A stretch of DNA of 64,000 nucleotides from Candidatus Lindowbacteria bacterium RIFCSPLOWO2_12_FULL_62_27 (GTDB taxonomy: Bacteria > Lindowbacteria > 2-12-FULL-62-27), in the NCBI GenBank assembly GCA_001784175.1, contig MFPR01000004.1:372001-436000 (forward strand). Direction: 5' to 3'. This document shows, piece after piece, positions 23,812 through 61,703 of the stretch. Each line of letters starts with the position of its first letter. Within the stretch, counting starts at the first letter, position 1. A model generated the notes under the pieces. It searched no databases. It saw nothing but the letters and a program-made list of their open reading frames with translations, and was not told the DNA's origin. The translations under genes were made by a program, and so were the position numbers.

Positions 23812-25200
23812 TCAATAGATCGTCACAATCTTGGTTCCTGGAAAATAAAATTTCAGGATTTGCGCACAGGTCAGCCCCTGCTCAGCCGCCGACTTGGCGC
23901 TCCACTGCGACAGACCCACGCCATGGCCCCAGCCCCGGCCCTGCACACCCAGACGGCCGTTCTTGTATGAGAAATCCGTCCAGAGCAGCGACCGGAGGCG
24001 GTCCGGGCCGATGCTCAGCCGGAATTTGCCCGCCGGGACGGTGACCCGGCCGCGCGTGCCCGTCAGCGACAGAAGCCGGACGCGGCCGCCGGCGGTCTTC
24101 TCGGCCACTTCGAAATTCCGGAGCCGGCCGACCTTCGCACGCGCGCTCCGGTCGAGCGCTTTCAGAATTTCCGGCTCGTCGAATTCCGCCTCCCATGACG
24201 CCCGCGGCGATGCGCCCGAGTATGGATCAGGTTTCGAGATCAGATACGGATAGGCGCGGCCCCAAATATCCCCCGACGATTCCAGCGTCCCACCCGACTC
24301 CGAATGAAAGACGGCTTCGATCAATTCCCCCCCGTACGTCAACACCTGGCCGCGCGTCGCGTCGACCGCCGCGGACGACCGCGGATCCTCCGAGGACCGG
24401 CCGCGGTACACCTGGATCGAAACGTCCGACGCGAGTCTTACCGGCCGTCCCGACGACGACCGCGCAAGGTCCATCCGGCGGAGCACAAACGTGCGGGACG
24501 CGACCGCCTGGGCCTTCAGCGCCTCCTCCGGCCACCCGGGGCCGACTTCATTTTTCAGGACGCCGTAGAGGTACTCCTCCACAGGAAGAGAATTCACAAG
24601 AACGAGTCGACCTTTCTCCACGGATATCTCCATTTTCCCGCGAAAGCTGCGCCCATTGAACCGCGATTCCGGCGGGAGAAGATAGGGCGATTCCACGCGC
24701 CGGCCGTTTTTCAAGACCGCCTGGCCCGACCGCGAGAACCGGTCGCGGTTGACGGTCAGCGTCTGGCCCGATCCGATCTCGATCTGCACCTCAGGCCCGG
24801 CCGTCCTGCCGACCGGGGCCGCAACCGGCGGCGCGTAGGTCTGAAGCAGAAACCGGCTCTCGGCCGCCCACTCGGAGTTTGGCGTGACTGCATCCAGCGC
24901 GGATTTCGCGTCGGGCCACCGGCCCTGTTTGCAGAAAACGAATCCGAGCACGAAGAGATATGCGTCCCGGTCCTCGCCCCGGGCCGTTTTCAGTTCCGCC
25001 TGGATCTTCTGCTCCGCTTGTTCGTATTTTTTCGCCTCGATCAATTCGAACACGGCGCGCGCCGGCCCGGCCGGCGTCGGAGACGCCGGCACTTGGGGCG
25101 CCGGAGGCGCTGACCCGGCACCGGCCACCGCCGGCGAGACCAGCGCCAGCCCCACGACGAAAACGGCGAGTCTCGAAACCGCCAAAAATGTCAGCCGCAC
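23812..25200 (-). CDS. SpoIID/LytB-domain protein with TPR-like segment
   Basis: EEYLYGV...E, ALKAQAVASRT, QVYRG, G.GHGVGLSQW; signal peptide. Confidence 0.9.
   Translation of the reverse strand: MRLTFLAVSRLAVFVVGLALVSPAVAGAGSAPPAPQVPASPTPAGPARAVFELIEAKKYEQAEQKIQAELKTARGEDRDAYLFVLGFVFCKQGRWPDAKSALDAVTPNSEWAAESRFLLQTYAPPVAAPVGRTAGPEVQIEIGSGQTLTVNRDRFSRSGQAVLKNGRRVESPYLLPPESRFNGRSFRGKMEISVEKGRLVLVNSLPVEEYLYGVLKNEVGPGWPEEALKAQAVASRTFVLRRMDLARSSSGRPVRLASDVSIQVYRGRSSEDPRSSAAVDATRGQVLTYGGELIEAVFHSESGGTLESSGDIWGRAYPYLISKPDPYSGASPRASWEAEFDEPEILKALDRSARAKVGRLRNFEVAEKTAGGRVRLLSLTGTRGRVTVPAGKFRLSIGPDRLRSLLWTDFSYKNGRLGVQGRGWGHGVGLSQWSAKSAAEQGLTCAQILKFYFPGTKIVTIY
25067..25119. repeat. 53-bp double-hairpin intragenic repeat, copy 1
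   Basis: CCGGCCGGCGTCGGAGACGCCGGCACTTGGGGCGCCGGAGGCGCTGACCCGGC; recurs near 32320 and 60723. Confidence 0.9.
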
Positions 25201-26381
25201 AGCGGCAGCGCCTCCCGCACCGTGATGAAGGAACCCGTGACAACCATCCGGCCGTTTTCCGGGAGGCGGCGCATCGCGGCGGACCAGGCGCGTTTCATCG
25301 GCGCGGGAGGATGGACGTCGATCCCCCGCGCCCGGGCGAGCCGGAGGAAGGGCCTCCAGAGCCGCATCGGTTTGGATCTCGCGTGGGCCAGGCGGATCAA
25401 TCGAACGGAGTCGCCGCAGCCCAAGTGAGGCAGAATTCTTTCCTCGCCACGCTTTTGCCGCTGCATGCCCAGAAGAACGGCCAGAGGACGCTCCGGGAAT
25501 TTCTTGCGCAGATACGCGAACAGCGCGCCCAAGGCCTGTTCGTTATGGGCGACATCCAGCAAAACGGAACGGCGCCACTCGAACCGCCCTGGGAGCGATG
25601 CGCGGCGAAGGCCAGCACGCGCCACGGCAGGACGAAAGTCCGATTTCAAGATTTTCCTGGCGGCCAGAAGCGCCAGTGCGAGGTCCGATCCGTAGATCTC
25701 CGCCGGCAGCCGGCCGGAATGAATCCGACGCGTGGACAAGAAAACAGGACGCGCGCGACACGTGGCCGCCACACGGCGGATGGCCAGACGCGCGGCCGTC
25801 GGTACGGGGCCGACAAGAAGGGGACGGGCCCGGCGGGCGATGTGAGCTTTGTCCCATGCGATTTTTTCAACTGTCCGGCCCAGAAACTCCATATGATCAA
25901 GCCCGATGGTCGTCAGAATGGACAGACGGGGATCCGCGGCGTTCGTCGCGTCCCACCGGCCGCCCATCCCGACCTCCATCACCGCCCACGCCACTTCGTG
26001 TTTCGCAAAGAGCCGGTATGCGAGGAACGTCAGAAACTCGAATTCCGTGAGCCGCACCCGCATCTCCGACAGAAGCGCCCGTTGGGACGCAACCTCCCGC
26101 GAAAACTCGGCCGCCCCCACGGATCGGCCGTCGATTTCGTAACGTTCCCTGAACGACCGAAGATGCGGCGAGGTGTACAGACCCACGCGCCGCCCATGCG
26201 CCAGCAGGATCTCCGACAGAGCCTTCGCGCAGGTGCCCTTGCCGTTCGTCCCGCCCACCAGCACCACGCCGTACCGGCGGTCCGGCCGGCCCGCGCGGTG
26301 GAGCGCCGCGCGGATCCGCTCCAGCGACGGACGGATTCCCCGCTTGGCGAGATGGTCCAGATACGTTGCGGGATTCTTCAC
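25191..26381 (-). CDS. folC: folylpolyglutamate/dihydrofolate synthase
   Basis: GTNGKG, YTSPHL, EVGMGGRWDATN, DVAHN; GTG start overlapping the accD stop. Confidence 0.92.
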   Translation of the reverse strand: MKNPATYLDHLAKRGIRPSLERIRAALHRAGRPDRRYGVVLVGGTNGKGTCAKALSEILLAHGRRVGLYTSPHLRSFRERYEIDGRSVGAAEFSREVASQRALLSEMRVRLTEFEFLTFLAYRLFAKHEVAWAVMEVGMGGRWDATNAADPRLSILTTIGLDHMEFLGRTVEKIAWDKAHIARRARPLLVGPVPTAARLAIRRVAATCRARPVFLSTRRIHSGRLPAEIYGSDLALALLAARKILKSDFRPAVARAGLRRASLPGRFEWRRSVLLDVAHNEQALGALFAYLRKKFPERPLAVLLGMQRQKRGEERILPHLGCGDSVRLIRLAHARSKPMRLWRPFLRLARARGIDVHPPAPMKRAWSAAMRRLPENGRMVVTGSFITVREALPLCG

Positions 26382-27982: not shown

Positions 27983-29162
27983 GATCGAACAGCCTCGGAA
28001 TGTCCTTGTCGCCGCGGCCCGACAAATTGATGATCACGCGGTCGGCCCGCCGGTATCGGCGGCGCTCCTTCCAGAAGCCCGCCACCGCATGGGCGCTCTC
28101 AAACGCCGGCGGGATGCCCTCCAGGGTCGTCAGCCGGTGAAAGGCCTCCAGCGCCGCGCGGTCGCTCACCGCGAAGTACCTCGCCCGGCCGGTTTTTTTC
28201 AGGTAGGCGTGCTCGGGCCCGACGCCGGGATAGTCGAGACCGGCCGCGATGGAATGGACATCGGCGACGTTGCCGTCCGAATTCGAAAGCAAGAACGACT
28301 GCGATCCGTGCAGAATGCCGGGGCTGCCGCGCGTCAGGGTCGCCGAATGCCGGCCGCTCTTCAGGCCCGTCCCGCCCGCCTCCACACCGATCAGGTCCGC
28401 GCGCGTTCGAAGAAAAGCGTAGAAAATTCCCATCGCGTTGGACCCGCCGCCCACACAGGCATAGATCGCGCGCGGCGGCCCGCCGGCCTTCCGGCGAATC
28501 TGCCGCAGGGCCTCGCGGCCGATCACCGCCTGAAAGTCCCGGACCATCATCGGATACGGGTGCGGGCCCGCGACGGAACCGATCAGATAATACGTCGTCT
28601 CCACGTTCGTTACCCAGTCCCGCAACGCCTCGTTCATGGCGTCCTTCAATGTCTGCGACCCCGCCGTCACCTCCCGCACTTCCGCGCCCAGGAGTTTCAT
28701 CCGGAACACGTTCGGGGCCTGCCGCTCCACGTCTTTGGCGCCCATGTAGATCGTGCAGGCAAGTCCGAGTTTCGCGCAGACCGTCGCCGTCGCCACGCCG
28801 TGCTGGCCGGCGCCGGTCTCGGCGATCACCCGCCGTTTGCCCAGACGCCGCGCAAGAAGCGCCTGGCCGATGCAGTTGTTGATCTTGTGCGCGCCGGTGT
28901 GGCAAAGGTCTTCCCGCTTCAAATACACCCGGCACCCGGCCGCCTCGGATAGGCGGTCCGCCCGGTACAGGGGCGTCGGCCGGCCCGCAAAATCGGCCAG
29001 GAGCGCGGCCAATTCACGGCGAAATGCGCGGTCACGCCGCACTTTCCCGTATCCCGCCTCCAGCTCGAGGAGCGCGGTCATGAGCGTCTCGGGCACAAAC
29101 CGGCCGCCGAACGGGCCGAAATATCCGCGCCGATCGGGCAGAGACGGCAGTGGATGTTTCAA
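27972..29162 (-). CDS. trpB: tryptophan synthase beta chain
   Basis: [43 protein letters not shown]. Confidence 0.98.
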
Positions 29163-30533: not shown

Positions 30534-32185
30534 TGCCGCCGTCCACCAAGCGCAAGGCGAAACTCTCGGTCGACCAGGAAGCGCTGCTTCAGGCGATCGA
30601 CGAGATCGAAAAGGAAAAGGGGATCGACCGCGAGACCATGTTTCTGGCGGTCGAGGCCGCGCTGGTTTCGGCCTACCGCAAGAACCACGGCGTGACCTTC
30701 AACCTCGACGCGCGCGTGGACCGCAAATCCGCGGAGATCACTTTCCACCGGTTTCATATCATCGCCGAAACGGTCGAAGACCCCGAGCTTCAGATCACGC
30801 TCGAGGACGCGAAGAAACAGGCGGACGATGCGGAACTTGGCGGCAAGGTTTATTCCCCCCTGGTCTTCAACGTCGAGGAGTTCGGCCGGATCGCCGCGCA
30901 GACCGCCCGGCAGGTCCTGGTCCAGCGGATCCGCGAGGCCGAGCGCGACCTTTTGTACGAGGAGTACCGGACGCGGGAGGGAGAGGTCGTCACGGTGATT
31001 GTGCAGAAGGTGATCGGCGACAAGGTGATTCTGAATCTGGACAAGGTCGAGGCGATCATGCCGTCGAAGGAGCAGATCCCGCGGGAAATCTACAATGTGG
31101 GCGACCGGATCAAAGTATACGTGGTGCGCGTCCGGAAGGGTCTCCGGGGCCCGCTGATCATCGTGTCGCGGACGCATCCGAAACTGGTGGAGAACCTGTT
31201 CAAGATGGAGATCCCGGAGGTCTTTGACGGGCTGATCGAGATCAAGGCCATCGTGCGCGAGGCGGGGGTCCGGACCAAGATTGCGGTCAAATCGAACGAC
31301 GCGAACATCGACCCCATCGGCGCCTGCGTCGGCGTCCGCGGCAGCCGCATCCGGACCATCCTCAAGGAGGTGCCGGGCGAAAAGATCGACATCGTGCCCT
31401 GGAGCGAGGAGATATCGACCTTCGTCAAGAATGCGCTCTCGCCCGCGCAGGTCACCAAGGTCCGCCTCCAGGACGACGGCCGGACCGTCCAGGTGGTCGT
31501 ACCGGACAACCAGTTGTCGCTCGCGATCGGCAAGAAGGGCCAGAACGCGCGGCTGGCCGCGAGGCTGACGAGGATGCGGGTCGACATTTACAGCGAGACC
31601 GACTACGCGGAGATCGCGGCGAAGGCGGCGAAGGAGGCGGCGGCGAAGATATTTGTTTCGACCGCCGACCTGCAGAAGGAGCTGCAGAGGATTGCGGGTG
31701 TCGGCCAGAAGGCGTCGGAGGCGCTGACGAAAGCCGGGTTCAGCCTCCAGAAACTGTCCGAGTCCAAGCCCGAGGATCTCGTCGAGGTCGAGGGGATCGG
31801 CGAGAAGCGCGCCGTGAAGATGATCGAGGCGGCGAAGAAAGTATACGAGGAAGTCCAGGCTGAACGCCGGGAGAAGGCCGAGCAGGAAGCGGCCGGAGCG
31901 AAGGCGGAAGCGGAAGCGCCGGCCCCCGAGGCGCCGCCGGAAGAGGGGAAACCGCCGGCGCGCAAGGGCAAGACGAGGACCAAGAAAATCGAGATCGAGG
32001 AGGAGGCGGCGAAAGAGAAGGAGATCGCCGAAAAAGCGCCCCCGATGACCTTCGAGGAGGCCCTGAAACTGTTCTCGAAACGCCTGGGAGAGTCGAAAGC
32101 GGCGGAGGAGAGCGGCAAAACGGACCGGAAGAAAAAAGAAAAAGATGAGAACGATTCCGGCTCCGAGGAGGGCGACGACCGATGA
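30533..32185 (+). CDS. nusA: transcription factor NusA
   Basis: FGRIAAQTA.Q, SRTHP, REAG.RTKIAV, GACVG.RGSR, LAIGKKGQN.RLA. Confidence 0.98.
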   Translation: MPPSTKRKAKLSVDQEALLQAIDEIEKEKGIDRETMFLAVEAALVSAYRKNHGVTFNLDARVDRKSAEITFHRFHIIAETVEDPELQITLEDAKKQADDAELGGKVYSPLVFNVEEFGRIAAQTARQVLVQRIREAERDLLYEEYRTREGEVVTVIVQKVIGDKVILNLDKVEAIMPSKEQIPREIYNVGDRIKVYVVRVRKGLRGPLIIVSRTHPKLVENLFKMEIPEVFDGLIEIKAIVREAGVRTKIAVKSNDANIDPIGACVGVRGSRIRTILKEVPGEKIDIVPWSEEISTFVKNALSPAQVTKVRLQDDGRTVQVVVPDNQLSLAIGKKGQNARLAARLTRMRVDIYSETDYAEIAAKAAKEAAAKIFVSTADLQKELQRIAGVGQKASEALTKAGFSLQKLSESKPEDLVEVEGIGEKRAVKMIEAAKKVYEEVQAERREKAEQEAAGAKAEAEAPAPEAPPEEGKPPARKGKTRTKKIEIEEEAAKEKEIAEKAPPMTFEEALKLFSKRLGESKAAEESGKTDRKKKEKDENDSGSEEGDDR

Positions 32186-34437
32186 GAATTTTTGAACTTG
32201 CCCGCGAGATCGGCCGCAGCTCCAAGGAGATCATTCAGGAGGCGGCACGGCAGGGGATCACGCTCGCCAACCACATGGTCGCTGTGCCCGAGGAACTCGA
32301 ACGCAGCCTCCGGGCCGGCGTCGGGCCGGCGTCGGAGACGCCGGCACTTGAGGCGCCGGAGGCGCTGATCCGCGACGCCGGCACTTGGGGCGCCGGAGGC
32401 GCTGACCCGGCCGGCGCAAAACCGGCGGCGGCGCCTGTGACGCAGCCCGCGCCCACGCCCGTGACCAAGCCCGCGCCGGCAGTTGCGCCCCCGGTGGCTG
32501 CAACGCCCGCGCCCACGCCGAAGCCTGCGCCGAAGCCTGCGCCGACGCCCGCGCCGGCGCGTAAACCCGCGCCGCCCGCGGTCGCACCCGCGCCGGCGGC
32601 GAAGCCTGCGCCGCCCGCGGTCGCGCCCACGCCGGTCGCCAAAGCCCCCGCTCCGAAACCCGCCGTCCCGTTGAAAAAACTGGCGTTGCCCTTTCCGCTC
32701 CGCGTCGTGGATCTGTCGAAGGCGATCGACCGGCCGGCGGCGGAACTCGTGGGAAAACTCATGGGGATGGGCATGATGGTGTCCGCCAACGCCCCGCTCG
32801 ACCGGGACGCGGCCTTGCTCCTCTCAAACGAATACGGATATGAATTGGAACTCAAAGAGGAGGAAGCCGAGATTCCCGTCAGCCCCGTCGAGGAGACCGA
32901 GAAGGAGGATCCGAAGAATCTTCTGCCCCGGCCCCCCGTCGTCGTCGTGATGGGGCACGTCGACCACGGCAAAACGTCCATCCTCGACACGATCCGGCAC
33001 ACTCAGGTCGCCAAGGGCGAATTCGGCGGGATCACCCAGCACATCGGTGCGTACCGCGTGAAACTTCCGAACGGAAAATACATAGCGTTCCTCGACACGC
33101 CCGGCCACGAAGCCTTCACGGCCATGCGCGCGCGCGGCGGAAACGTTGCGGACATCGCGGTCCTGGTCGTCGCGGCCGAGGACGGGGTCATGCCGCAGAC
33201 GGTCGAGGCGATCAGCCACGCCCGGGCGGCGAAATTGCCGATCATCGTCGCCATGAACAAAATCGACAAACCCGAGGCCGACCGCCAGCGCGTCCTGAAG
33301 GGCCTGTCGGATCACGGGCTCAACCCGGAGGCCTGGGGCGGCGACACGGTGGTGGTGGAGGTTTCGGCGGTGAAAAAAACCGGAATCGACACGCTTCTCG
33401 ATATGATCGACCTTCAATCCGAAATGCTCAGTCTTAAGGCCAACCCGGACCGGCCCGCGACCGGAACGGTGATCGAATCGAAGCTGGAACGGGGACGCGG
33501 GCCGACCGCCACGGTCCTCGTGCAGAAGGGGACGCTGCGCGTGGGCGACATCTTCGTCTGCGGGTCGACCGCCGGCAAGGTCAAGGCGTTGATCGACGAA
33601 AACGGCAAGCGGATGGACCAGGCAGGTCCGTCCACGCCCTCGGAGGTTCTGGGATTTCAGGAAGCGCCCCAGGCCGGCGATCGTTTCAACGTGGTGGCGG
33701 ACGAGAAGACGGCCAAGGACATCGCCGAAGGCCGCGGATCGAGACGGAAAGACATGGCGCGCCGAAAGGCCGACGGGCCCCTGACGCTCGAGGCGATGAC
33801 GGAAAATTTGCGGGAGGGCGAAAAAACCGTTCTGCCACTCCTCCTCAAGACCGATGTGCAGGGCTCCCTCGAAGCGATCCGGGACGCGCTGGAGCGTCTT
33901 CGGAACGACGAGGTGCCGATCCAGGTCCTCCACGCGGCCCTGGGCGGGATCACGGAGAGCGACGTCCTTTTGGCCGCGGCCTCCGGCGCGACCGTCCTCG
34001 GCTTCAACGTCCGGCCGGACGAACGCGCCACCGCAACGGCCGATCGGGAAGAGGTGGATGTCCGGACGTATCGGATCATCTACGATCTTCTGGACGACGT
34101 CAAAAAAGCGGTGACCGGCCGGATGGCGCCCAAGACCGAGGAGCGGGTCATCGGCATGGCCGAGGTACGCAACGTATTCAAGATATCTCGGTTCGGCACC
34201 GTCGCCGGCTGTTTCGTCAAGGAGGGCAAGGTGGAGCGACGCGGGAAGATCCGGGTGGTGCGGGACGGCGCGATCGTGTACGAGGGGAAGATCGGCTCGC
34301 TCAAGCGGTTCAAGGACGATGTGCGGGAAGTCGAGAAGGGCTACGAGTGCGGGATCCTGATCGAAAACTACAACGACGTCAAAGTGGGCGACATACTAGA
34401 AATCATTCTGATTGAGGAGATGGCCCCGACCCTGTAG
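32182..34437 (+). CDS. infB: translation initiation factor IF-2
   Basis: [31 protein letters not shown]. Confidence 0.98.
32311..32414. repeat. tandem (one near-full plus one partial) copies of the 53-bp intragenic repeat in infB
   Basis: GGCCGGCGTCGGAGACGCCGGCACTTGAGGCGCCGGAGGCGCTGATCCG followed by GACGCCGGCACTTGGGGCGCCGGAGGCGCTGACCCGGCCGG. Confidence 0.9.
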
Positions 34438-57999: not shown

Positions 58000-59724
58000 T
58001 CAATCCACCGGGATGAACCAGTCATCACACCGGCCGCAGAGGGGGCTTGCCTCCGTATATTGACCTTCACGATGCGCCTCTCGATGAGGGCGCATCCGGT
58101 TCCAAGCCTCCAGAAACGATAGAATCTCCATCACATTTCCCACGCTCGTTTCGGAGGCAGGGTTGAACATGCGATCGCACAGGACGATGCTGCCGTCCGT
58201 CTTGACAAATAACGTGTTCGACATCCGGCGGCAGGGGAACCGCTTGAGAGGCGTAAAATTCGTCAGCCGGTGGTCCGGATTCTGTCCCGCATGGGTCGAG
58301 GCGCCCTGAATGACCAGATGCTCCACCATGTGGCCCTCGTCATAAAAGGTGCGCACGGCCGCGATCTCATTGTCAAACGTAAAATCCCTGCCATACCGCT
58401 TGATCCATTTCTTCCGCGTCATATGAGAGGACATGAACGCATCCACATGATCCTCGAGTTCGGCGATGAGCGTCGTTGTCAGGATGATGACCGGCCCAAT
58501 CATAAAGGTCAGGTTGCTTCTGGGCCGCGCTCGTTTGAGTTCCAAGAGACGATCGATGTTGCGTTTGACGGTCTGAAAATCCCCGGCGGGCCGGATCTTG
58601 AGGTAGTGGGGCTCGTCCACCGCGTCCAGGGACACCATGATCGACGCGACGGGGCCGCGCGCCATGTGTTCGGCGATGTCCCCGCCCATCAACCGACCGT
58701 CCGTATAGCAGTGAATACCGGGCATCACAGGATATTTTTTCGTAAACACGTCCAGGAGGCGCAACACCTCGGCGTACTGCGGATGTTGCAGCGGTTCGCC
58801 CAGCCCGGCCAGGTGGACGTTCTCGACAAAGCCGGCATCCTGGGCAAACAGCTCGAATATTCGTGAAAATATTTCGATGGACATATAGGAGGGATACACC
58901 GCCGGTTTTTTCCAGTGATTCAGGGGAGAGTACACCGGGGGAACGTCGTTGACGGATGAAATCTCAATCCAGGCCGATTTCCGCCCTGCAGGGATCACTA
59001 CATCCGTCGTTTCCAGCAACGTCGACAGCCGGTCGATGCTCAAATCTGAAAGGGCTGTATCGAGTTTTCCGATCACGGTCCGATAGGCGTTCACCGCAGA
59101 CGGTGTACACCGCTCGAACAAGAGAGGATACCCGAGAGGACGCCCACGGCGTTTCTCAATTTCAGCCCGGAAAGGGCCGGATAATAACTTAAAGGGGCTT
59201 CCCAGTAATGCGAAGGCGGTGTGAAACGTCATCATGGGGTCGGGCGCCTGCTCCATGAGACTGATCACGTTTTCCAATTTTGGAATCATGGATTGATGAA
59301 AGAGAACCATCTCCCATCCCGGCCAGACGATATTGACAGCCGCCGGATGGTTGTCCTGGACCGCCTTTGAAAAAGTGAATTTGAATGTTTCGTCATCAAA
59401 AAAAGTTGAAAAATTGGGGCGAAGTCCGGCCAGCCAGGGTGTGTTCAGCCCCTGCAGGGCGGACAGATAGAAACGGAATTCCGCCGCTGGATATTGGGAT
59501 GGGCGGTCCTTGATCAGAAGAGGGGTGATCGGCCGCCGAATGTCCCGCATCGCCGCTTCACACGCCTCCCGGGTCTGCGGAACAACCGCCGCAAGGAGGG
59601 GGCCGATTTCCCCGCATGTCCCGGCCTTTTTGACGGCCGCCACGAACAGGTTCTCATCCCCGATTGGTTCAAACCACACCGGATCCACCGCCGGAATCAA
59701 CAAACTAACCTGTGCCATTTTCAA
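58000..59724 (-). CDS. degenerate radical-SAM-like + SPASM domain protein (spiro-SPASM-like)
   Basis: G.GEPL.HP, SLDA..Y..IR, C-terminal PC......DG....C ... C..CDDW; lacks CxxxCxxC. Confidence 0.65.
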   Translation of the reverse strand: MKMAQVSLLIPAVDPVWFEPIGDENLFVAAVKKAGTCGEIGPLLAAVVPQTREACEAAMRDIRRPITPLLIKDRPSQYPAAEFRFYLSALQGLNTPWLAGLRPNFSTFFDDETFKFTFSKAVQDNHPAAVNIVWPGWEMVLFHQSMIPKLENVISLMEQAPDPMMTFHTAFALLGSPFKLLSGPFRAEIEKRRGRPLGYPLLFERCTPSAVNAYRTVIGKLDTALSDLSIDRLSTLLETTDVVIPAGRKSAWIEISSVNDVPPVYSPLNHWKKPAVYPSYMSIEIFSRIFELFAQDAGFVENVHLAGLGEPLQHPQYAEVLRLLDVFTKKYPVMPGIHCYTDGRLMGGDIAEHMARGPVASIMVSLDAVDEPHYLKIRPAGDFQTVKRNIDRLLELKRARPRSNLTFMIGPVIILTTTLIAELEDHVDAFMSSHMTRKKWIKRYGRDFTFDNEIAAVRTFYDEGHMVEHLVIQGASTHAGQNPDHRLTNFTPLKRFPCRRMSNTLFVKTDGSIVLCDRMFNPASETSVGNVMEILSFLEAWNRMRPHREAHREGQYTEASPLCGRCDDWFIPVD

Positions 59725-60802
59725 TCATCTCCCACGACAAAGGTGTCCCCTCGTCAATATTGCGGCTGGCGGTCCGGCCGAGGATGGAGGGGTAATACCG
59801 GCAGGGAAGGCCGTGGCCCGGGCGAATCGTTTTGATGTTGTTGGATCCGAAGGCTTCTCCCTGGTGGATGGCCCGAACCGCGAAAATGGACGGGCGGAAC
59901 CGGATGTTGACCTCTTCGTCCTCGTTCGGCCCGTACCGCACGCCTCCCATGGCCCTTTCAGTTTCCCGGACCGATTGAACCAGTTGTTTGAATTCGGCGG
60001 GTTCCATGGAAAACGCCGCGTCCGGCCCGCCCAGGGATCTCGACAGTGTGAGATGTTTTTCGATGATCGTCGCCCCCAGCGCCACCGCCGTGACTGCGGC
60101 GACGGATCCCAGCGTGTGATCGGACAGTCCCACCGGCCGGTGGAAGGCAGCCTGCATGTCCGCCAGTGTTCTCAGATTCATTTGATCCAGCGCGGCCGGG
60201 TAGGCGCTGGTGCATTTCAACAAGGCGATCTCCCGGGCGCCCACCCGGTCCAGCGTGACGACGGCCTCCTGTATTTCATCGCGGGTGGCCATTCCCGTGG
60301 AGACAATGACGGGCTTGCGGGTTCGGCCGATATGTTCCAGCAAATTCAAATCAACAATTTCGAACGATGCGATTTTGTAGAGCGACACGCCCAGCCGTTC
60401 CAGAAAATCCACGGCGGTTTCGTCGAACGGCGTCGAAAAGAAATCGATCCCGACTTCCTCGCATTTCTGTTTCAGCCTGGGATGCCAGTCCCACGGCAGA
60501 TATGCTTTTTGATAGAGATCGTACAGCGTCCGGCCCCTCCAGGGGGAATTTTCCGGCAATTGAAACCAGGCCGATTTGGAATCAAAGGTGATCGTGTCCG
60601 GCGTGAAGGTTTGAATTTTGACGGCGTTGGCGCCGGCGCCCATGGCCGCATCAATCAGTTGAAAGGCCACGTCCAATTTCTGGAGATGATTGGCGGACAG
60701 TTCCGCGACAATATAAACGGGGCCGGCCGGCGTCGGAGACGCCGGCACTTGGGGCGCCGGAGGCACTGACCCGGCCGGATCGAATTTATCAGGCGGGGTC
60801 AT
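59705..60802 (-). CDS. pseI: pseudaminic acid synthase-like (NeuB family)
   Basis: AELSANH, K.QT.T.DTIT, PW.WH, KIASFE, LKCTS.YP, GGPD..FS.EP. Confidence 0.85.
   Translation of the reverse strand: MTPPDKFDPAGSVPPAPQVPASPTPAGPVYIVAELSANHLQKLDVAFQLIDAAMGAGANAVKIQTFTPDTITFDSKSAWFQLPENSPWRGRTLYDLYQKAYLPWDWHPRLKQKCEEVGIDFFSTPFDETAVDFLERLGVSLYKIASFEIVDLNLLEHIGRTRKPVIVSTGMATRDEIQEAVVTLDRVGAREIALLKCTSAYPAALDQMNLRTLADMQAAFHRPVGLSDHTLGSVAAVTAVALGATIIEKHLTLSRSLGGPDAAFSMEPAEFKQLVQSVRETERAMGGVRYGPNEDEEVNIRFRPSIFAVRAIHQGEAFGSNNIKTIRPGHGLPCRYYPSILGRTASRNIDEGTPLSWEMIENGTG
60723..60775. repeat. 53-bp double-hairpin intragenic repeat, copy in the pseI 5' end
   Basis: One mismatch versus the 25067-25119 copy. 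Confidence 0.9.
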
Positions 60803-61703
60803 GGCTCGGCGCCAAGCACGCGCGATCCGCACTGCCGCACGCCAATTTCTCCAGCACACACTCGCGGATGCCCGCGGGATCCAGACGGATCATCCTGCGG
60901 AGATCCTGGACCCTGCCGTACCAGACGCAAAATTGATCGGGCAGCCCATGATACGACACCGACAAATTTTGGATTTCACACACCGCTTCGTGGAGACCGA
61001 AGGCGTCGTGAACCACAAGAATCCTTGTATGCCGGAATTTCTCAATCAACTCTCTATCAATAGGCTTGATCGTATGGAAATAGACCAGATTGACATCCAG
61101 ATCCCGGCAGGCCTCGAGAACATTGCCGAGGATGGGACCGGCCGTCATCACCGTGAGGTCCGACCCATTCTCCTTGAGGGCGACACCCTTCCCGAACTGA
61201 ACCGGAAGATCGATGTCATGGGGATGGTCGGACAGGCGGAAATAGGTGGTTTTCCGGTTGTTGTACTGGCTGCGCAAGAGCACGTCCACCTCTTTTTTGG
61301 ACCCGGGCTGAACGACCTCGAGGTCCGGCAGCAATCTCAGGATCGCCAGATCGGAGTAACAATGGTGAGTCGCGCCGTCCCATGCATAATCGAAAGTCGC
61401 CCCCGCCGTTACGATGTTCCCCGCAAAACGGTTGTAACACATGTCGTCCTTGATCTGCTCATAGCTTCTTTCAACAAGAAAGGGCGCGATCGTGTGGACG
61501 ATTGGAAAAAAGCCCTGCGCGCTCAAGCCCGCCGCCACGCTGACAAGCGTATTTTCACAAATGCCCATATTAAAGAAACGGTCCGGGTGTTTTTCCCTGA
61601 AGTCATTAAAAAGGTAAACACTGATATCGCCAAAGACGAGGACGATTCTGTCGTCACGCGCGGCCATATCCATCACCGTCGCTTTAAACTGTTTCCGCAT
61701 CAA
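60789..61703 (-). CDS. transketolase C-terminal (pyrimidine-binding) subunit
   Basis: RFFNMGI.E, ER..EQI, G.THH...D, YFRL. Confidence 0.88.
   Translation of the reverse strand: MMRKQFKATVMDMAARDDRIVLVFGDISVYLFNDFREKHPDRFFNMGICENTLVSVAAGLSAQGFFPIVHTIAPFLVERSYEQIKDDMCYNRFAGNIVTAGATFDYAWDGATHHCYSDLAILRLLPDLEVVQPGSKKEVDVLLRSQYNNRKTTYFRLSDHPHDIDLPVQFGKGVALKENGSDLTVMTAGPILGNVLEACRDLDVNLVYFHTIKPIDRELIEKFRHTRILVVHDAFGLHEAVCEIQNLSVSYHGLPDQFCVWYGRVQDLRRMIRLDPAGIRECVLEKLACGSADRACLAPSHDPA

Follow-up and report, generated by a model that had tools for sequence, protein, structure and literature searches.

The stretch of DNA considered here, which we call the window, is a segment of 64,000 nucleotides (nt) from Candidatus Lindowbacteria bacterium RIFCSPLOWO2_12_FULL_62_27 (G000:C4:372001-436000, where G000 is the source genome, a 4.39-Mb draft in 44 contigs that is 94% complete). 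It hosts several copies of a 48-bp repeat that is very likely a mobile element, and that is found inside three unrelated genes of the window. An earlier note on this DNA, made from the letters alone, had pointed to near-identical sequence at three places; copies are indeed present at all three, and the stretch in infB proved to be two nested units. For comparison we use the genomes of three sister genera (G001, whose assembly is 88% complete, G002 and G003), which together with G000 make up the whole phylum in our genome collection.

The first copy (25070..25117, + strand) shows 0 mismatches to the family consensus. Its host is a minus-strand gene (23812..25200) for a SpoIID-domain protein, 462 aa in the longest open reading frame (ORF), with the Pfam SpoIID domain at aa 196-289 (E 1.7e-25). 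On the minus strand the element makes up codons 28-44 of the protein, directly past the signal peptide. The SpoIID-like orthologues of G002 and G003 are without the segment, and the region that follows the signal peptide is variable.

The second site is a composite of 96 bp, or 32 codons (32314..32409, + strand), in the plus-strand infB gene (32182..34437), which encodes the 751-aa initiation factor IF-2. The first hairpin of an outer unit (32314-32324 and 32373-32409) has its GGA loop split by a second, inner unit (32325..32372, + strand; core 32326-32372, 2 mismatches), which lies between CGG and the third loop base, and the centroid fold shows the nesting. The composite falls in the variable N-terminal region of IF-2, upstream of the IF2_N domain (aa 173-221), and 28 aligned residues are missing at this point from the IF-2 of G002 and G003. 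The infB gene reads the opposite element strand from the other two window genes, and it does so in two frames.

The third copy (60726..60773, + strand; 1 mismatch) lies at the 5′ end of a NeuB/PseI-like minus-strand ORF (59705..60859), the gene of a NeuB-family sugar-acid synthase whose longest ORF is 384 aa (NeuB at aa 68-307, E 1.7e-93). The element is upstream of the conserved start of the NeuB family (VYIVAELSANH), and homologues begin right after it. The gene likely starts at the ATG at 60802, which overlaps the stop of the upstream gene (60789); the copy may then be part of an N-terminal extension, or it may lie in the leader. A peptide starting with GS(A/V), which had been proposed as common to the SpoIID and pseI copies, is read in both minus-strand ORFs. 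The observation that copies lie near the N-terminus of their ORFs is true of the three in the window and fails across the genome, where they are found anywhere along ORFs.

The unit, counted as one G plus a 47-nt core, consists of a hairpin with a 9-bp stem, a 7-nt linker, a second hairpin with a 5-bp stem and a 7-nt tail. Both loops are GGA and on the same strand, and both hairpins are built to one design, GGCG(T/C)C-GGA-G(A/G)CGCC. Triloops of the C-GNA-G type are unusually stable. As single-stranded DNA the + strand does fold into the two GGA-looped hairpins that had been described for it, with a free energy of -19.7 kcal/mol and a z-score of -1.95 against shuffled sequences; this z is modest because all sequence in this region is GC-rich, the unit itself being about 80% G+C.

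Further evidence for the structure comes from comparing copies. Among the 69 distinct sequences of 104 units from four genomes we count 43 doubly compensated cells in the stems, spread over nine pairs and several pair types. When the columns were shuffled the mean was 4.2 and the maximum 11, with 0/1000 shuffles reaching the observed 43. Some inflation of the count by related copies is to be expected, but the variety of pair types speaks for a real constraint on both stems. The loops, linker and tail are near-invariant across units, save for one C/T position. The unit has 16 codons and no stop in five of six frames, four of which give peptides rich in Gly, Ala, Ser and Pro and one a peptide rich in Arg; the sixth holds a TGA.

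A shorter form of 24 nt is also present, in which the second hairpin alone has the head and tail of the full unit. This is found in 14 places in G000, mostly within ORFs (e.g. C4:264196, C19:33706, C38:12659 and C40:72432), and it is either a deletion derivative or a separate single-hairpin family.

An ungapped Hamming scan of G000 with the 47-nt core, at a cut-off of 12 mismatches, gave 70 matches, of which 47 have at most 2 mismatches (11 with 0, 26 with 1 and 10 with 2). The reversed sequence gave 0 matches in the same genome at up to 14 mismatches, and chance is therefore excluded. A genome-wide count of this kind had been suggested in the earlier note, together with the proportion in genes, and the answer is that 62 of the 70 copies (approximately 89%) are wholly within called ORFs, one overlaps an ORF end, to which the TGA frame of the element gives the stop codon, and seven are outside. 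Genes were called by a simple codon log-odds method, with long ORFs as its training set, that always takes the longest start; it called 2788 ORFs, covering 86.9% of the genome. The intragenic share of the copies equals this coding density (binomial p 0.86), from which it follows that the element does not avoid genes. Along the ORFs, the first and the last decile hold 12 of the 62 copies each, and since the caller takes the longest start some of those in the first may precede the true start.

The hosts include genes as central as trmD, gltX, carA, infB, lepA and dnaG. A Pfam scan of 60 host ORFs (three were left out) found domains in 52 of them, and many have domains on both sides of the insert. 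In several proteins the insert is inside the domain envelope: TrmD (aa 112-127), GltX (201-216) and CarA (44-59), and further a PIN protein, a squalene/phytoene synthase (SQS_PSY), a LolA-like protein, a hexokinase and others. Elsewhere the inserts lie in linkers, as they do in kinases, a sigma-54 activator and a hybrid histidine kinase. In the predicted model of TrmD the insert is a coil between a helix and a strand, with a predicted local distance difference test score (pLDDT) below 50 at residues 114-126; this is a weak argument for a loop, as the AlphaFold model, built on an alignment of 6 sequences, reaches a mean pLDDT of 65 and is of moderate quality only.

The six reading frames are used unequally. 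Among the 62 copies within ORFs the counts are 22, 15, 12 and 10 for four frames, 3 for the Arg-rich frame and 0 for the frame with the TGA (chi-square against uniform use, p 9e-6), and the same four frames prevail in the sister genomes (39/41). These figures show that the Arg-rich and TGA frames are purged.

At C4:287068-287114 the element is found in its stop-containing frame, and its TGA is the stop codon of a PMT_2/TPR gene. Another unusual gene is C12:27534-28721, in which one ORF encodes both an Oxidored_molyb domain (aa 37-172) and a P-II domain (aa 282-389) and the element lies between the two, at aa 223-238; two genes may have fused here across the element.

If copies are insertions, orthologues should lack them, and the earlier note had named the contrary finding, an ancestral segment, as what would count against its proposal. 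The orthologues of TrmD, GltX, CarA, the LolA-like protein and a CO-dehydrogenase flavoprotein, taken from G001-G003 and two distant genomes, are missing exactly 16 codons. Among the within-domain hosts compared the gap is clean in 5/6, the squalene synthase being the less clean case, and at the DNA level the length added at filled relative to empty sites is 48 bp. The comparison was also made in the reverse direction. Of the 42 copies in loci fetched from G001-G003, 39 lie in frames that stay open for 150 aa or more; five of these have hosts with no match in G000, 11 have no alignment across the site and 23 can be compared, and G000 is filled at 0/23. A metagenome relative with 92% DNA identity has a filled site where contig C37 of G000 is empty. 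The segment is thus an insertion and not ancestral, and the proposal of a recently active miniature repeat that donates a peptide segment agrees with both the empty orthologue sites and the lineage-specific insertion sites.

Could repeats of this type be an artefact of assembly or binning? Contigs of short-read graphs do break inside the element, and in the graph contigs of the sequencing runs, which were used for this check in place of reads, none bridges a whole copy; none skips the 48 bp among the joints listed. The junctions between flank and element are, on the other hand, identical (0 differences) in contigs from four runs of three studies, though two of the runs may be one data set. Copies lie in unique contexts with host frames open, and the element is also present, at other sites, in the three other genomes and in further metagenome records. 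Almost certainly, then, the copies are genuine, and the possibility of an artefact, for which the earlier note had allowed, was not borne out.

All 4/4 genomes of the phylum in the collection carry the element, in very different numbers, and outside the phylum it was found in none of the approximately 185,000 species genomes. A 32-nt pattern with at most 3 mismatches is found 57 times in G000, 31 times in G002, seven times in G003 and once, as a degenerate copy, in G001, against 0 matches in 37 other genomes. An exact 24-mer has only two other records in a species-genome collection of approximately 185,000 genomes and no match among viral contigs, and it occurs in 65 metagenome loci, many of them from the same organism as G000. 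A distant-mode search of a plasmid collection gave no match, nor did an Rfam scan of 24950-25250 with E up to 1, and a non-exhaustive search of the literature found no description of the element; all of this agrees with the earlier suggestion that the repeat is possibly undescribed. The unit is near-identical across genera whose proteins are only 55-76% identical.

In G002 units also form head-to-tail arrays (L017, L020, L126, L129, L130 and L138) that hold 2-3 units or more and have a period of exactly 48 nt. These lie within ORFs, where they read as 16-residue protein repeats, and each array has mutations private to it. Lineage-private variants of the element are likewise found in G002, and together with the array-private mutations they point to amplification within each lineage. 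A CRISPR-like array was considered here and rejected, as there are no spacers and the arrays are simply head-to-tail units. A DNA uptake sequence was rejected too, the copies being far too few.

One might instead ask whether the unit is a module selected by the host, such as a peptide linker or a structural signal in RNA or DNA, and not selfish DNA at all. Strong sequence conservation across four genera, the maintenance of the stems and the lack of depletion from genes would all fit such a role. Against this, the unit is read in four frames and on both strands, giving unrelated peptides; seven copies lie outside ORFs, no insertion site was common between genera at the 23 that could be compared, and the host genes are functionally unrelated. 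We regard a selected host module as highly improbable.

The ends of the unit are best defined by copies that have entered other copies. We found six such nested copies, four in G000 (the one in the window infB, and those at C33:71410, C4:477991 and C26:135178), one in G002 and one in G003. They enter the loop of hairpin 1 or hairpin 2 of the older copy, always in the same orientation. The nested 48 nt begins with the G at the foot of hairpin 1, ends with the last G of the tail, and sits between the CGG and the A of the C-GGA-G loop. The junctions are ambiguous by at most 1 nt, and there is therefore no target duplication. A crossover at GG by a serine recombinase (IS607-type) was rejected, since the nested junctions are without the required 2-nt repeat.

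Ordinary insertion sites are also far from random. Among 48 ordinary copies that are well kept, position -2 of the left flank is G in 48/48, -3 is C in 40/48 and -4 is C in 34/48, which reads as (C)(C/G)G. On the right, G, C, C, G, G, C and G are found in 40, 34, 34, 34, 28, 28 and 25 of the 48 copies, and the sequence is random beyond. Taken together the two flanks indicate a preferred target of CCG^GCCGG(CG), which resembles the unit's own start; empty orthologue sites already hold part of this motif. The junction repeat ranges from 1 to 13 nt, apart from a single one of 22 nt, and its median length is about 6. The palindrome CCGGCCGG, which is the preferred landing site, occurs 1742 times in G000, by our own arithmetic approximately 5 times the expectation from base composition.

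These ends bear on the possibility that the unit is a miniature inverted-repeat transposable element (MITE) derived from a DDE-type insertion sequence, moved as double-stranded DNA via palindromic CCGGCCGG termini that serve as both direct and inverted repeats, and whose full copy the assemblies lack. Its termini do allow a reading as short inverted repeats, and insertion sequences are often missing from metagenome bins (G000 is 94% complete). However, the hallmark of these MITEs, terminal inverted repeats with a duplication of fixed length and variable sequence, is not seen in the 48-bp unit: 48 bp is added whether the junction repeat is 1 or 13 nt, and the junction repeats have one constant sequence, part of which the target already held. 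The CCGG positions at the ends are moreover less conserved than the interior and present in empty sites, and no solo left half or parent element was found. An origin of this type seems to us very unlikely.

When empty targets were reconstructed and folded, they were slightly more stable than 600 random CCG^GC sites (-11.7 and -10.3 kcal/mol, p 0.014). The orientation of the element relative to GC skew is 30 to 18 at best (p 0.11); in G000 the skew does not track gene orientation (953 vs 956), and it is for this reason no proxy for the replication strand.

We consider it probable that these observations are explained by a non-autonomous 48-bp miniature mobile repeat, specific to a small candidate phylum. 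Each new copy adds exactly 48 bp without a target-site duplication and lands after (C/G)G, mostly at CCG^GCC(GG); older copies are entered again and again at their exposed GGA loops, in the same orientation. Copies further multiply locally into tandem arrays with a 48-bp period. Coding insertions survive, probably as extra loops, even in essential enzymes, because the unit is 16 codons, is mostly stop-free and offers four benign frames.

The part of this explanation that concerns the enzyme is put forward more tentatively, as something that may well turn out otherwise. The unit would move as folded single-stranded DNA and be handled by an HUH/Y1-type enzyme, IS200/IS605- or RAYT-like (RAYT, REP-associated tyrosine transposase; REP, repetitive extragenic palindromic), supplied in trans. 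We infer this from the two similar hairpins on the same strand, the lack of a duplication, the orientation-specific insertion and the compensated stems. In design the unit matches IS608 as portrayed in two abstracts (PMC3201880, PMC5027513), given two like hairpins on the same strand and no duplication.

A transposase-free route deserves to be set beside this one. A nascent or broken end with CCGG microhomology could, during replication or repair, anneal to a copy, copy one 48-nt period and switch back, the unit spreading by templated copying. The unit is in fact bounded by a direct repeat of up to 10 nt (CCGGCCGGCG) whose outer parts are already in empty targets, the landing palindrome is frequent, junction homology varies in length as it does in microhomology-mediated events, and the exact 48-nt arrays with common private mutations show that slippage occurs. 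Templated copying fits less well with the 8/48 copies that have at most 2 nt of junction homology, and with nested insertions that have 1 nt. It would also have to explain six nested insertions at one phosphodiester bond in hairpin loops and a unit that stays near-identical between genera with such divergent proteins, and it gives no role to the compensatory maintenance of stems. On this evidence we hold templated copying to be unlikely.

A number of results nevertheless weigh against the single-strand, HUH-mediated explanation. An IS608-type mechanism accounts for the left flank alone, which leaves the conserved right flank unexplained. The range of junction homology, with its median of several nucleotides, also fits a homology-guided process. 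In ordinary targets the cut site is not more unpaired than at control CCG^GC sites (0.32 vs 0.27, p 0.28), and hence there is no clear sign that these targets are hairpin loops. A half-unit search of G000 found 0 solo first-hairpin halves, and thereby no parent element.

Other results concern the mobiliser. The earlier note had suggested an HUH/RAYT transposase, to be sought as a RAYT- or IS200-like gene flanked by copies, and in this form the suggestion did not hold. Eight diverged genes of the Y1/HUH type are present in G000. Their products are 288-331 aa long and show the HUH and Tyr motifs, and for each of them the best match is the NCBIfam REP-associated tyrosine transposase, one alone being above the cut-off. 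None (0/8) has a copy of the element within 3.7 kb, and seven are accompanied by repeats of their own, five on both sides and two on one side.

The eighth gene, L001 (C41:78407-79321; L001:1474-2388), is a single RAYT-like gene without flank repeats. It has orthologues with 59-76% identity in G002 and G003, while the best match in G001, where the element has its one degenerate copy, is 38% identical. This is a lead, drawn from four related genomes of which G001 is 88% complete. Neither a unit nor a half-unit was found within 1.5 kb of these orthologues in G002 and G003, and L001 itself has no similar hairpins at its sides. It is possible that an HUH enzyme acts on the unit in trans.

The seven Y1 genes with their own repeats (L002-L008) are at C1:98904, C24:14266, C24:56871, C36:20349 and C44:3871, which are flanked on both sides, and at C22:14991 and C43:154972, which are flanked on one. 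Their flank repeats are AT-richer, different for each gene, present 6-19 times in the genome, inverted where both-sided and unrelated in sequence to the 48-bp element. Several REPtron-like systems thus coexist in G000. An ORF between two inverted copies of the element (C20:63421-64383) was examined as a possible transposase and rejected; it is membrane-protein-like, has no Pfam match and lies in a neighbourhood of transporter and cytochrome-maturation genes.

A more specific, and on balance rather doubtful, version of the single-strand explanation sees in the unit a minimal transposon of 48 nt, made of two fused hairpins, one of the left end and one of the right, which exists beside the 24-nt single-hairpin form. 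An unlinked, domesticated Y1/HUH enzyme, for which the L001-type gene is the candidate, would keep it active throughout the phylum, and it would target GGA loops and CCG^GCC in coding DNA and so supply 16-residue loops. If true, this would place the unit among the smallest mobile elements known, and make it a natural generator of protein insertions.

How does the unit compare with known systems? The Rickettsia palindromic elements (RPEs), for which the source is reportedly Ogata et al. 2000, are the obvious counterpart. As described in a review (PMC10969869), these are palindromic repeats lying in frame within many unrelated, intact and often essential genes, absent from orthologues, with a conserved peptide that is tolerated and no linked transposase, all of which the 48-bp unit shares. 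According to the same review prokaryotic MITEs are normally AT-rich and intergenic, RPEs are the extreme case, and nearly half of the RPE insertions are in ORFs; for our unit the share is the 89% given above. RPEs are approximately 100-150 bp long, AT-rich and hosted by an obligate intracellular alphaproteobacterium, in contrast to a 48-bp unit of high G+C content that is read in four frames, nests in itself, forms arrays and lives in a free-living uncultured phylum. The behaviour of the unit is RPE-like, with length, composition and host phylum setting it apart from the RPEs by description, and we claim no membership of a family.

In behaviour the unit also matches the intragenic REPs of the GTAG and CGTC super-families (Di Nocera et al. 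2013, PMC3733652). These are short hairpin repeats, some of them wholly within ORFs (in Opitutus terrae and R. conorii), and intragenic dimers encode 20-30 aa in hosts that include a tRNA synthetase and replication and repair genes; the CGTC class, like the 48-bp unit, is without a dedicated transposase. Yet most of these REPs are, in the same account, intergenic and often in inverted pairs, whereas the 48-bp unit is mostly intragenic and consists of two direct hairpins. They are also described as having an unpaired terminal tag, the CGTC stems beginning with A/T pairs, with loops of 4-5 nt and a CCA tail (PMC3733652). Our unit has no unpaired GTAG or CGTC tag, since it starts at the foot of the stem and has CGTC inside the stem, and its loops are 3 nt.

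REPINs and the REP-RAYT systems are similar in that a domesticated Y1/HUH transposase, present in single copy, is thought to move their hairpin repeats in single-stranded form (PMC3333891, PMC8266576); G000 has eight genes of this kind. The definition of a cognate RAYT requires its own repeats at its flanks, and no RAYT-like gene here is flanked by the 48-bp element. Nor is the unit mostly extragenic, as REPs are, with 7/70 copies outside called ORFs.

Gene-less derivatives of IS200/IS605 elements, of the PATE type, exist. The full elements have, in the abstracts cited for IS608 (PMC3201880, PMC5027513), hairpins of the same strand near both ends, no target duplication and an oriented insertion by a short motif, and the 48-bp unit resembles a left-end hairpin of this family joined directly to a right-end hairpin. 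It differs in that no TnpA bounded by element ends was found in the 94% complete assembly of G000, and in its left cut, which falls at the hairpin foot and leaves no space for a guide on the 5′ side. Conservation, moreover, extends to the right flank.

Rickettsia is the best-known home of in-frame selfish repeats, which have been regarded as a peculiarity of reduced genomes. The work presented here indicates that a much smaller, GC-rich element does likewise, and more thoroughly, in a free-living uncultured phylum, without breaking trmD, gltX, carA, infB, lepA or dnaG. With its exact length, lack of duplication, nesting and genus-specific sites it is a clean system for the study of how a geneless repeat moves, and it may show how proteins gain loop insertions. 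It is also a warning for those who annotate and align proteins, since the 16-residue segments cause spurious cross-matches between unrelated proteins, seen as weak secondary matches in homologue searches.

One minor observation concerns the metagenome contigs. The summed word depth across the window peaks at 28676-29009 (753) and 33018-33351 (276), against approximately 8 elsewhere. These peaks are likely to be conserved gene segments that are common to other organisms in the samples, and not copies of the element.

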